NCBI GenBank assembly: GCA_011982905.1
Contig: GCA_011982905.1_4767.1
Length of the DNA stretch: 59,846 bases
Origin: a phage
Reading direction: 5' to 3' (one strand)
In this document: piece after piece, positions 18,428 to 48,997 of the stretch
Layout of the letters: each line of letters starts with the position of its first letter
How positions within the stretch are numbered: the stretch's first letter is position 1
Program-made: the position numbers and the translations under genes
The notes under the pieces: generated by a model
What the model was told of the DNA's origin: nothing
Seen by the model: the letters and a program-made list of their open reading frames with translations, nothing else
Database searches by the model: none

Positions 18428-18698
18428 AGGTATTGATAAAGTCGTTGAAGGGCTTTCTATTCGTGCCCATGTTATAGCAGACGAAGGTCATGATCAACTT
18501 ACAATTATGAAATCTGCATTCAGCGATTTTAAGTCTCTTGGAAACTTAAGCGGGTTAATGACTGTGGTGTCGACCGGAAAATTAACCCAGCAGCAAATCA
18601 GTCTAGCTCAGCGTATTGCTGTTAAAGTTATTGCGGTACTTGGGATGATTGAAGCTGAAAAGCCCAGTTCCAAGCAGGATAACGAAAGCGACCTTTAA
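18414..18698 (+). CDS. hypothetical protein
   Basis: 94-aa ORF overlapping the upstream stop. Confidence 0.4.
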   Translation: MTKNEGIDKVVEGLSIRAHVIADEGHDQLTIMKSAFSDFKSLGNLSGLMTVVSTGKLTQQQISLAQRIAVKVIAVLGMIEAEKPSSKQDNESDL

Positions 18699-18709
18699 GG
18701 AGGTCTACT

Positions 18710-18913
18710 ATGTGTGGTAATACTAACCGTTGCTGTCTAGGCAGTCCTGCAACACAAGTAGGTATACTTCAGGGGCAATTGGCTCAAGCAGCGTGTAATT
18801 GCAAAACTTTTCAACCAGTAGCGCCAACTCCTGTGTTTGTGAATGCTTTTGCACCGCCTGTTTTCAATACTTTTGGCGTATACCCATACGGTGCTTTCTT
18901 TCGTATATTCTAA
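18710..18913 (+). CDS. small Cys-rich protein with aromatic C-terminus
   Basis: 67 aa; strong TAAGGAGGT RBS; shares a QLAQ.A..CK...PTP segment with the 17121 ORF. Confidence 0.45.
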   Translation: MCGNTNRCCLGSPATQVGILQGQLAQAACNCKTFQPVAPTPVFVNAFAPPVFNTFGVYPYGAFFRIF

Positions 18914-38648: not shown

Positions 38649-39116
38649 TTATTGGATTGAGCCGCGATCAATTAACCATTGTTTCGCGTGCGCTTTAAAA
38701 ATAATGCGGTAATCATCAAGACTAATTTCCGCGCGGATGGAATCTTTAACTTCATACCACTGCCATTCGCCATTACTGAAGACAACTGGATTGAGCGGTA
38801 GAACAACCTTCCATCCTTTACGTTCTATTTTATACATCAGAACTGGATATCTGCCAAGCTCTTTAGCAGATTGAACAGTCTGCTTCCACCATGTGTTCAC
38901 CTGTGGCGTAGCATGGTTTTTTACTTCAACCGCATGGTGGCATGTATTGCTAATGTCGCAACCACCGACCGCACTTTGATTCTGGTTGCGCTGAGCAATA
39001 GGTTTTTCCGGTAACTGCATCCCCAGCTCTGCGTAAATTTCCGCATAAATTGCATTAAAGAAATCACATACTTCCCGCTCACCGCGTTGACCTTTAGCGC
39101 GAATATTTACTGCCAT
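38649..39116 (-). CDS. Hjc-like PD-(D/E)xK nuclease (putative Holliday junction resolvase)
   Basis: ATG at 39116 with GGAGA RBS; AKGQRGEREV ... D ... EVK pattern recalled from archaeal-type Hjc resolvases. Confidence 0.45.
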   Translation of the reverse strand: MAVNIRAKGQRGEREVCDFFNAIYAEIYAELGMQLPEKPIAQRNQNQSAVGGCDISNTCHHAVEVKNHATPQVNTWWKQTVQSAKELGRYPVLMYKIERKGWKVVLPLNPVVFSNGEWQWYEVKDSIRAEISLDDYRIIFKAHAKQWLIDRGSIQ

Positions 39117-39190
39117 GTTTGTCTCCATAACTTTAATGTAAAACACTTCATAAAGAATTTTATATTGAAGTTATGTTGATCGCAAGGAAC

Positions 39191-39222
39191 AAAAAAAGCC
39201 CAGGTATAAGGATTCCTGGGCT
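39191..39222 (-). terminator. intrinsic terminator (minus strand)
   Basis: 8-bp stem AGCCCAGG / CCTGGGCT with 10-nt loop, followed on the minus strand by T6-7. Confidence 0.65.
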
Positions 39223-39333
39223 CTCTTGATTGTCGGATAGCTTACTTTGACTGCCGTCTTCGTCTATCCTGGCCTACTTGTACAGCCTCGCCAAAGGCTG
39301 GTGACGGTTTGGTACATCTGGCGCCGTCGCGTT

Positions 39334-39472
39334 AAACATCGTTCACATCGTTCAGTAAGTTGCGGGTTTACCCTGTCCGCTCCAGGAAGCCCAGCGAAAG
39401 TAGTTGCTGTAAGGAGGTACAGCTACCGCTTTCAAGGGCTTGAGTTAAGCATCGTTCACTAAGTTAATGTTG
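39334..39472. repeat. direct repeats ATCGTTCA(C/G)TAAGTT in a noncoding gap
   Basis: ATCGTTCA occurs at about 39339, 39346 and 39451, twice followed by (C/G)TAAGTT; lies in a ~385-bp gap with no convincing ORF. Confidence 0.4.
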
Positions 39473-39534
39473 TTAAATTGTTAAACCTCGTTAACTGTGA
39501 TTATCTTAAAGGATGCAGTCTTGAATGGCAAGCT

Positions 39535-39882
39535 TCAATTTTGCGCGGTTTCCTTTGCCGCTTTTGGTGCTAAAGTACCATCATTTAACATCAACTCAAA
39601 ACCTGTTACTTGATCGGTTGGAACAATAGGGTAATTCATAATAGCCATGTGGATACGATGTCCTCCGTCACATTCATCGATGTATTCATTACCCCAATAG
39701 TATAAATGTCCATCTCTTCGAATATTCATTGCTGTTGGGAAATCTACAAGAATTCTTTTAATTTCTTTTCGTCCTTCTTTATGAAGATTAGTTTCAATAC
39801 GGATAAGCTCCGCATAAATTGCTTCACAGATAGTGTTTACAATTCCCATCACCAGTCCGCCTTTTCTGTTTCGTTGATACAT
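39535..39882 (-). CDS. hypothetical protein
   Basis: 115-aa ORF. Confidence 0.45.
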   Translation of the reverse strand: MYQRNRKGGLVMGIVNTICEAIYAELIRIETNLHKEGRKEIKRILVDFPTAMNIRRDGHLYYWGNEYIDECDGGHRIHMAIMNYPIVPTDQVTGFELMLNDGTLAPKAAKETAQN

Positions 39883-40397: not shown

Positions 40398-40622
40398 ATG
40401 GTCATGCTGAATAAAGTATATAGCACAATGGGCGCGGATTATAAAGTTGTACGTCACCCGCGTACTGGTAAATTTGAAGCATATATCCGTCCAATGGGTG
40501 AAGGTTGGATGTATTACGGTACTTATGATGACGCTGAGCAAGCTTATAAAGAAGCGGAAAGTGCGGCGGAAGCATCCGAAATTATGGCAACGTACGACGT
40601 CGATGATTACTACCTTAACTAA
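40398..40622 (+). CDS. hypothetical small protein encoded on the plus strand inside the minus-strand block
   Basis: 74 aa; strong GGAGGA RBS 8 nt before the ATG; followed by a convergent terminator. Confidence 0.5.
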   Translation: MVMLNKVYSTMGADYKVVRHPRTGKFEAYIRPMGEGWMYYGTYDDAEQAYKEAESAAEASEIMATYDVDDYYLN

Positions 40623-44049: not shown

Positions 44050-44340
44050 CCTCCGATAGGGTATTGTCTTAACCCTATGGTAAGACCCTCCCTATTAAAT
44101 TGCAAGAGTTATTGTAAAACAATAGGTATAGGGTGCAATACAGGGTTCATATAGGGTAACCCTATAAACACCCTATAAAATACCCTCCCTATGCAGCTTT
44201 CTAAATTTATAGTTTTAGTTTACCCCTTGCGCTCCCGCAGAAAAACTAAAGATAGGGGTACTAGGGTATAACAATGGCAAATACCCTATACCCTACTCCC
44301 TATACTATGATTCTAAAAAATTTGGTGTATACCCCTATAA
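44050..44340. repeat. iteron-like array of CCCTATA / TATAGGG motifs, including a 17-bp perfect palindrome
   Basis: About 14 copies of the CCTAT core in both orientations within ~300 bp; perfect palindrome TATAGGGTAACCCTATA at 44150-44166. Confidence 0.6.
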
Positions 44341-44480
44341 ACTTATAAACTTTCAGTCAACTAACTAAAATAAAACTAATTAAACTAATATTAATAATAA
44401 CTATAAATATATATAAAATAAGGATTTATTATTATTGTATATAGTACCTATTGGTATTATGTGATGAGTTTATAGTCACT
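44341..44480. other. AT-rich tract adjacent to the iterons (candidate DNA unwinding element)
   Basis: Roughly 140 bp of very AT-rich sequence (TAAAATAAAACTAATTAAACTAATATTAATAATAACTATAAATATATATAAAATAAGG...). Confidence 0.45.
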
Positions 44481-44682
44481 AAATAAACTCTATAAATTTT
44501 AATAAACCTGAACGGATGCAGATCAAAAACGAGAAGTCAAGTGCTTTTGAGGGAAATTTATTGAACTATTGTGATCGGATGGTATATCAAGCTATAATGC
44601 GCTTAATCGCGGGATATTGGAGGAGGACTTTATTACGCGGTTAACCGGACCAGTAGGAGGGCTGGCCCGGAGAAGTTAGAAT

Positions 44683-48722: not shown

Positions 48723-48997
48723 TAATGGAAGTTACTGAAGCTGCTAAACGCATGGTGAAATTCTATGTTAGTTCTGATTCACCTTTAATTCGCGCTTTTG
48801 GTCAGGAGCTTTATGTTTTCCAGGGTGATCGAGAGGAGGCTGAAGAGGTTGCTCAGAAGATTCTTGATTTACAAGAAAAAGCTAAACGGGCGGATGCCCT
48901 GGAAGCTGTAGCAAAGGACTTCCTGCGTCGTAACGCTAACGGTCCTTTGTTCTATCGTGATTTGTATAACCGTTTTAAGGAGGTTATTGGTGATTGA
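48713..48997 (+). CDS. hypothetical protein
   Basis: 94-aa ORF. Confidence 0.45.
   Translation: MEIIMEVTEAAKRMVKFYVSSDSPLIRAFGQELYVFQGDREEAEEVAQKILDLQEKAKRADALEAVAKDFLRRNANGPLFYRDLYNRFKEVIGD

Follow-up and report, generated by a model that had tools for sequence, protein, structure and literature searches.

A predicted structured non-coding RNA gene between replication genes of Seuratvirus phages

The intergenic locus and its predicted transcript

We analyzed a gap between two minus-strand genes in a 59,846-base-pair (bp) stretch of phage DNA (assembly GCA_011982905.1, contig GCA_011982905.1_4767.1; below, the window), and we consider it very probable that this gap is a gene for a structured RNA. 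The window comes from a Seuratvirus (Queuovirinae) and is 98-99% identical to Escherichia phages KurtStettler/Bas22, Seurat and CAjan. Seuratviruses (BASEL Bas21-25, CAjan, Seurat) often serve as models in work on 7-deazaguanine DNA modification and in anti-phage defence screens; in the literature we searched, we found nothing on a non-coding RNA or a transcriptome of this genus, and we know of few non-coding RNAs with a known role in any strictly lytic phage. The gap (39117/39147-39534; Table 1) lies in a block of genes read leftward in the order primase-polymerase, small genes, gap, PDDEXK endonuclease, dUTPase, RNase H, ligase and helicase, followed by the QueE/C/D, FolE and DpdA genes and then DNA polymerase.

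Table 1. Features of the gap and its flanking genes, in order of transcription (window coordinates; nt, nucleotides).
Feature	Coordinates	Strand	Description	Evidence
Upstream gene	39535-39849/39882	minus	104/115-residue protein	
Promoter (putative)	39503-39531	minus	sigma-70 type; -35 TTGCCA (39531-39526), 17-nt spacer, -10 TAAGAT (39508-39503)	promoter scan
Primary transcript (predicted)	39191-39496	minus	structured non-coding RNA, ~305 nt	fold z-score, GC content, covariation
5' segment	39466-39496	minus	A/U-rich; four UUAAC repeats (GUUAACGAGGUUUAACAAUUUAACAACAUUAAC); includes UUUAACAAUUUA	
Linker repeat 1	39444-39465	minus	AACUUAGUGAACGAUGCUUAAC; core UGAACGAUG retained in STP-SP5	
P1	39387-39441	minus	long interrupted hairpin, 20 pairs; apical loop ACCUCCUU(A) at 39418-39410	covariation
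H-type pseudoknot	39362-39386	minus	CCUG-GA-GCGG-A-CAGG-GUAAAC-CCGC; S1 CCUG:CAGG, S2 GCGG:CCGC; A-rich loop 3	covariation
Linker repeat 2	39331-39361	minus	AACUUAC-UGAACGAUG-UGAACGAUG-UUUAAC; two tandem 9-mers	
H3	39303-39328	minus	GACGG, 16-nt loop CGCCAGAUGUACCAAA, CCGUC	consensus fold
H4	39283-39300	minus	CAGCCUU-UGGC-GAGGCUG; seven pairs	
H5	39235-39269	minus	GGAUAG, 23-nt loop, CUAUCC; loop motif GAAG..AGUCAA.GUA	
Intrinsic terminator	39191-39222	minus	AGCCCAGG, 10-nt loop, CCUGGGCU, U7; 8-bp GC-rich stem	sequence, inverted repeat, fold
Downstream gene	38649-39116	minus	PDDEXK-type endonuclease, annotated 'RusA-like'; ATG start used in relatives (GTG at 39146 set the left limit in the initial annotation)	

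The upstream gene ends, with its stop codon, 3 nt before the -35 hexamer of the putative promoter. Salmonella phage STP-SP5, the only ~78%-identical relative, keeps both hexamers in a form nearer to consensus (TTGACA-17-TAATAT), and from the spacing transcription is predicted to start near A39496. The strong minus-strand intrinsic terminator described in the initial annotation was confirmed at 39222-39191 by direct reading, by its inverted repeat and by folding; our consensus terminator scan missed it only through an 8-nt limit on the loop. It is retained in STP-SP5 with a 9-bp stem. In a third lineage (phages VogelGryff, Dru_SM1, SA80RD, OddieOddie and SA126VB, and contig L172) divergence is strong over the final third of the element, and an unrelated terminator, GCGCAGCG-UGAAAA-CGUUGCGC followed by U6, occupies the same place in the VogelGryff group. 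Promoter hexamers of the sigma-70 type and an intrinsic terminator thus frame the element in each of the three diverged lineages. From the predicted start, the distance to the terminator is ~305 nt, which corrects an earlier estimate of ~250 nt. In KurtStettler/Bas22 the predicted RNA corresponds to ~44055-44360 of MZ501091. GC content is 51-55% within the core of the RNA versus 29-43% in the flanks. The initial annotation had proposed a discrete non-coding transcript running from promoter to terminator, and the comparative evidence (promoter, terminator, covariation and the lack of a conserved open reading frame, ORF) supports this prediction.

Beyond the terminator, the minus strand has another promoter-like site (TTGCGA-17-TAAAAT, 39185-39157). 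It reads TTGAGA-17-TAAAAT in the VogelGryff group, and the alignment gives the same -35 hexamer in STP-SP5. Such a site is present after the terminator in all lineages, and the downstream replication genes would therefore be independent of read-through. Overlapping it is a 23-nt inverted repeat (39126-39148 / 39153-39175, 83% complementary) that extends to the ribosome-binding site of the PDDEXK gene; the whole repeat (39126-39175) could be an operator or a hairpin in the messenger RNA (mRNA). In five phages, a gene for an HNH homing endonuclease stands directly after the RNA terminator (L005:1361-1873 in VogelGryff and L006:1361-1873 in Dru_SM1, equivalent to a position just left of window 39191). 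In phages with this gene, the adjoining third of the RNA gene (H5 and the terminator) shows strong divergence that ends sharply near window 39278, and this tract looks like a nuclease-resistant allele or a product of co-conversion.

As the initial annotation had noted, the gap holds no convincing ORF: the only sizeable one (39247-39462, plus strand) has 71 codons and a TTG start. This frame is shifted in STP-SP5 and cut to 32 residues in metagenome contig L176, while a 21-codon minus-strand ORF beginning at an ATG in a repeat leaves and regains its frame in STP-SP5 despite conserved nucleotides. Neither is preceded by a Shine-Dalgarno sequence, and comparison of the ORFs with STP-SP5 and L176 revealed no conserved small protein-coding gene in the gap. 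That the locus nevertheless encodes a small protein, either a plus-strand 'hypothetical protein' of 53-71 residues or the 21-codon minus-strand product, is thus very improbable: the ORFs do exist, and 39247-39462 is annotated as hypothetical proteins in KurtStettler (bas22_0061) and KS_A8 (CDS0065/0066), but the gap is unannotated in other records. These plus-strand annotations are probably spurious, judging from the broken frames, and the present finding corrects them; in Seuratvirus records the RNA locus has hitherto been either blank or annotated with hypothetical proteins.

Conserved fold and modular architecture

Compared with shuffled sequences, the fold of the minus strand has a z-score of -4.0 and that of the plus strand -2.15. 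The ~305-nt RNA is laid out as an A/U-rich 5' segment, a linker, the P1 hairpin, an H-type pseudoknot, a second linker, hairpins H3-H5 and the terminator. Covariation was scored for a named structure of 54 pairs in 14 distinct sequences from GenBank phages, IMG/VR and metagenomes. Standard pairs make up 98.9% of the pair cells, and compensatory double changes occur in 10 of the 54 pairs, a number reached by none of 500 column shuffles and reduced to 1-2 in structures slid by 1-3 columns. In the consensus fold (alifold), 12 of 72 pairs are compensatory. Several G-U pairs are invariant or newly acquired; because the same positions on the plus strand would be A.C mismatches, the folded molecule is the minus-strand RNA.

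The pseudoknot directly follows P1. In P1, 99.3% of cells are paired and six pairs show double changes; in one pair, C-G was replaced by U-A twice, in separate lineages, and L007 shows the intermediate C.A. Ordinary folding programs show only one of the two helices of the pseudoknot, yet in an alignment of six versions all eight of its pairs are 100% paired, four of them with double changes (stem 2, for example, is GUGG:CCAC in STP-SP5). Over the whole hairpin and pseudoknot module, STP-SP5 differs from the window at 20 of 56 paired positions but at only 4 of 31 unpaired ones, and such variable stems with fixed loops are the pattern expected of a functional RNA. In the VogelGryff/Dru_SM1/L172 lineage, H5 has A-U in place of three G-C pairs (AAAUAAGG...CCUUAUUU) and retains its loop motif; H4, with one G-C to G-U change in STP-SP5 and one invariant U-G pair, is mostly invariant and hence uninformative; and H3 is invariant in all sequences, so that covariation speaks neither for nor against it.

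On both sides, the hairpin and pseudoknot module is flanked by a repeated linker, AACUUA-N-UGAACGAUG-YUUAAC. The direct repeats listed in the initial annotation are all present, three copies of ATCGTTCA on the plus strand (at 39338, 39347 and 39451), two of them extended to CATCGTTCAGTAAGTT (39346-39361) and CATCGTTCACTAAGTT (39450-39465). They had been taken as part of a promoter, which is wrong: they are transcribed linkers, found at about +32 to +53 and +136 to +166 of the RNA. Read on the minus strand, the 9-mer TGAACGATG has three exact copies, all in the gap and none elsewhere in the window, where ~0.46 copies are expected from 9-mer frequency on both strands. Its copies are degenerate in close relatives (TAAACGATG, TTAACGATG, GAACAATG), and linker 2 of Dru_SM1 carries three tandem 9-mers, one more than the window.

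The same architecture is seen in duplicate in contig L176 (ERZ1026901 NODE-154), where an insertion of ~100 nt (L176:1137-1245) falls exactly at linker 2 (window 39346-39361). This insertion is a second module, composed of a different long hairpin with the loop GUUCGUU and then a second pseudoknot, CCAG-GA-CUGU-A-CUGG-AUAAAC-ACAG, whose stems (CCAG:CUGG and CUGU:ACAG) both covary relative to the main copy. When IMG/VR was scanned by the loop pattern of the pseudoknot alone, both stems paired in none of 29 unrelated matches, but they did so in all Seuratvirus copies and in the one paralogous copy.

Homologs were found only close to home. Thirty-five phage records match the region, all of them Queuovirinae of the genus Seuratvirus, and the matched stretches are 95.5-99.2% identical (best in KurtStettler/Bas22) except in STP-SP5 (78.5%); in 5 of the 35 the match spans the 5' two-thirds only. 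Three IMG/VR contigs and nine metagenome contigs hold further homologs. Outside Seuratvirus, none was detected by nhmmer over 178 loci, nor by two covariance models (R1, the hairpin and pseudoknot module; R2, the 3' domain) run over other Queuovirinae loci, and in exact-pattern scans of IMG/VR and metagenomes all 76 non-Seuratvirus matches to the 16-nt H3 loop fail the stem test. Nor does the element correspond to a known family: Rfam 15 (4227 covariance models, gathering thresholds) gave no match in the whole window, an expectation value (E) of up to 10 gave three chance-level matches only over 39050-39650, and ARAGORN found no transfer RNA (tRNA) or transfer-messenger RNA in the window. BLAST against 5,426 E. 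coli genomes gave no match that would point to a host origin or to a host antisense target. Together, the conservation analysis and the covariance-model and structure search, both suggested at the outset, describe an element kept across Seuratvirus, with covarying helices and no known family; on the searches made, the predicted RNA is a new family confined to this genus. It would add a covariation-supported RNA of ~305 nt to a tractable E. coli phage, with two features of note, a duplicable pseudoknot module and a loop that copies the anti-Shine-Dalgarno sequence.

Possible modes of action

What might such an RNA do? To us it is an even call that the locus is a free-standing minus-strand gene for a structured ~305-nt non-coding RNA acting in trans, and we lean, from the comparison of lineages, toward an independent trans-acting RNA rather than a leader. 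A free-standing gene is favoured because the promoter is conserved, the terminator is replaced and not lost, and a separate promoter lies downstream. The initial annotation spoke of a small RNA; at ~305 nt and with so much structure, the molecule goes beyond a simple one. The RNA would be released as a discrete molecule and act in trans, and its working part would most likely be the invariant loop ACCUCCUUA on P1, which may base-pair, in mRNAs of the phage or the host, with strong Shine-Dalgarno sequences (UAAGGAGGU) and block or tune the initiation of translation, while the pseudoknot and the 3' hairpins would give stability or bind a protein. We offer anti-Shine-Dalgarno pairing as a possible mechanism, tentatively and in the awareness that it is doubtful.

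The proposal starts from the apical loop of P1, ACCUCCUU(A), which is invariant in 14 of 14 distinct sequences and whose ACCUCCUUA is identical to the 3' end of 16S ribosomal RNA (rRNA), the anti-Shine-Dalgarno sequence. Local alignment with the E. coli rrnG leader and 16S has two best matches. One is ACCUCCUUAC with the 3' terminus of 16S, at 10 of 10 positions (11/12 in STP-SP5); the other, at 14 of 15, is UUUAACAAUUUAaCA in the 5' segment with the 3' half of the rrn boxA and the next bases of the rrnG leader. Within the latter, UUUAACAAUUUA repeats the 3' half of boxA and the bases after it exactly, with 12 nt in common. On the strand read as transcribed, the copy of ACCUCCUUA in P1 is the only one, and the two other TAAGGAGGT sites are Shine-Dalgarno sequences of plus-strand genes. 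Two plus-strand genes, starting at 18710 and 48990, have the perfect complement UUUAAGGAGGU as their ribosome-binding site. Both are small, and their 11-nt ribosome-binding sites (18693-18712 and 48973-48992, plus strand) are a perfect TTTAAGGAGGT, the exact complement of the P1 loop; the gene starting at 18710 encodes a cysteine-rich protein of 67 residues.

Several observations weigh against a free-standing RNA that works through this loop. The best local score against rrn is attained by 4.7% of shuffles, and both the 9-nt match of the loop to 16S and the resemblance to boxA were spotted post hoc. The anti-Shine-Dalgarno loop is not intrinsic to the module, since GUUCGUU takes its place in the hairpin of the second L176 module. 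No antisense target longer than 12 nt was found in the phage genome, only 11-12-mers at chance level, and none for the H3 loop. With 305 nt, five conserved helices and a pseudoknot, the predicted RNA looks more elaborate than typical base-pairing small RNAs and more like one that binds a protein or a ligand. Finally, no terminator belongs to the upstream gene itself, which makes the region also the 3' end of the primase operon, and the RNA could thus be a 3' untranslated region or a leader.

A cis-acting leader or attenuator is indeed the main rival to the free-standing gene, although we judge it unlikely. Here the folded RNA would set the balance between stopping at the terminator (39222-39191) and reading through into the downstream genes for replication and nucleotide metabolism, whether as a riboswitch-like element, as a switch that depends on an antiterminator protein, or as an RNA for processive antitermination like HK022 put or lambda nut, with the pseudoknot modules serving as aptamers or protein sites. 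The arrangement suits such a role: the unit lies within a long co-directional gene block, behind a gene without its own terminator, and a promoter, an untranslated structured RNA and a strong terminator stand directly ahead of the next gene, as in the lambda PR'-tR' 6S transcript, HK022 put, lambda nut and rrn boxA. Unlike in those leaders, however, a further promoter-like site follows the terminator, here in all three lineages, and the RNA is several times larger; neither a put-like two-hairpin layout nor a gene for Q or N was identified. At the start of the pseudoknot, UUCCUGG could pair with CCAGGAA of the terminator's 5' arm (UCCUGG:CCAGGA in STP-SP5) as a candidate antiterminator, but this complementarity is lost in the VogelGryff group with its replaced terminator, where a reading of the sequence leaves only a complementarity of the junction before H5 with the pseudoknot start. 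Moreover, ~165 nt and three conserved hairpins separate the pseudoknot from the terminator. The 12 nt that the 5' segment has in common with the E. coli rrn leader (UUUAACAAUUUA, boxA and its flank) point the same way as the layout, but the half of boxA that contacts NusB is absent. A boxA antitermination site was considered and rejected, since the full consensus GCUCUUUAACAA is matched at only 9 of 12 positions, which is noise level (90 such matches in the window versus 74 expected). As to a riboswitch, the compact H-type pseudoknot (25 nt, 4 bp in each of the two stems, A-rich loop 3 G/AUAAAC) resembles preQ1-I and several other aptamers, its duplication in L176 recalls tandem aptamers, and the phage makes preQ0 for DNA modification. 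In contrast to preQ1-I, loop 2 is a single A, the ligand-reading cytosine has no counterpart, no riboswitch family matches even at E up to 10, and the que genes lie ~10 kb downstream of the RNA and not directly after it. A mimic of a tRNA-guanine transglycosylase substrate, suggested by UGU motifs, was dropped, as the motifs are not conserved in STP-SP5.

Two further readings turn on the repeats. In one, which we regard as improbable, the transcript is a precursor of several small RNAs or a decoy, with the linkers AACUUA-UGAACGAUG-YUUAAC as processing or protein-binding sites around interchangeable modules. Cleavage would then yield ~100-nt units; alternatively, the RNA would sequester a host or phage RNA-binding protein or nuclease, like type III antitoxin mimics or sponge RNAs. 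The linkers do flank the module, their core is retained in STP-SP5, and copy number varies: Dru_SM1 has one additional 9-mer and L176 one additional complete module, placed precisely at the linker. A pseudoknot is found in every module, just as in the units of a type III antitoxin, and in ToxI/AntiQ and the phage pseudo-ToxI mimics such repeat-delimited units likewise vary in number between close relatives. Yet type III antitoxins are tandem, near-identical repeats of 34-45 nt, whereas the modules here are ~100 nt long, differ in sequence and occur singly in most genomes, and no gene for a ToxN/AbiQ-like endoribonuclease or other defence protein lies nearby (no PADLOC family match among the neighbouring proteins). 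Still less probable is an element that works as DNA, with TGAACGATG and the TTAAC repeats as iterons or operators, either of an origin beside the primase gene or of a regulator, and a transcript that is incidental or activates the origin. The three exact 9-mers are unique to the locus and vary in tandem copy number, the locus lies between the primase-polymerase gene and other replication genes, and the promoter reads across it, as is known at some phage origins. On the other hand, the compensatory changes and the G-U pairs specific to one strand indicate that selection acts on a folded minus-strand RNA, the core is GC-rich (51-55%) and not AT-rich, the 9-mers degenerate in close relatives, unlike co-evolving iterons, and a far more AT-rich repeat region exists elsewhere (~44400-44560). 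Alongside a role of the RNA, the repeats could bind a protein as DNA as well.

Among described RNAs, the predicted trans-acting gene comes nearest to Staphylococcus aureus RNAIII and RsaE/RoxS, base-pairing RNAs that direct C-rich hairpin loops against Shine-Dalgarno sequences. Like these, the Seuratvirus locus has the layout of a free-standing gene with promoter and intrinsic terminator and offers a CCUCC-type hairpin loop complementary to ribosome-binding sites. In contrast, it has no sequence or Rfam relationship to them; it comes from a lytic phage, is predicted from sequence, and at ~305 nt adds a pseudoknot and three more hairpins; and its loop copies 9 nt of the 16S tail in full, where theirs is UCCC. 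A more speculative and rather improbable reading takes the RNA as an rRNA mimic for host takeover (or, in another version, the pseudoknot as a new aptamer class that senses a 7-deazaguanine precursor). The start resembling the rrn leader (UUUAACAAUUUA) and the exact anti-Shine-Dalgarno 16S tail, held on a rigid scaffold of hairpin and pseudoknot, would then occupy strong Shine-Dalgarno sequences or titrate factors that recognise the 16S tail or the rrn leader. If true, translation or transcription would be reprogrammed in infection by a kind of regulation that, to our knowledge, has not been described for lytic phages.

Neighbouring genes and the syntenic slot

The 104-residue protein of the upstream gene is present in exactly the same 35 genomes as the RNA. 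It evolves fast and is mosaic, and it gave no match to any family, PDB sequence or defence system; it may be a partner of the RNA or just a genus-specific neighbour. Within its last codons, a hairpin, GCGGTTTCCTTTGCCGC, followed by TTTTGG (39545-39561, plus strand) resembles a plus-strand terminator and is retained in STP-SP5 despite a protein identity of only 44%. On the other side of the gap, the gene labelled 'RusA-like Holliday junction resolvase' in several records (38649-39116, minus strand) matches Pfam PDDEXK_15 (E = 1.5e-13), a family of putative phage PDDEXK endonucleases, and not RusA.

Beyond Seuratvirus, the syntenic slot is a 187-nt gap in Nonagvirus and a 100-nt gap in Klebsiella phage K9PH25C2. 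The only Rfam match on related loci is a tRNA of Pantoea phage Vid5, a tRNA-Ser gene in the same slot just upstream of the PDDEXK gene (L013:2197-2284). In Vibrio phage 83AMN, the slot is 490 nt long and free of ORFs (L012:2012-2500); its fold has a z-score of -2.9, and it includes a terminator, a promoter-like site and a hairpin whose loop is UUACCUCCCUGA. This locus was rejected as a homolog: short islands of similarity were seen by eye, and neither covariance model confirmed them. The slot upstream of the PDDEXK gene may recurrently host RNA genes.

Three features lie further upstream. A gene of 74 codons on the plus strand (40398-40622), amid minus-strand genes, has a weak likeness to the AP2-domain/HNH family (Pfam E = 0.0034; phrog_99 E = 0.0022). 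Upstream of the primase block lies a very AT-rich, repeat-bearing non-coding stretch (~44400-44560), which would be a better candidate than the gap for an unwinding region or origin. At 44645-44670 (minus strand), a second intergenic hairpin (9-bp stem, loop CCCUCCUA) lies after a small ORF and lacks a U-tract; it is annotated as a terminator in SA126VB and SA80RD and is not retained in STP-SP5 or Dru_SM1.

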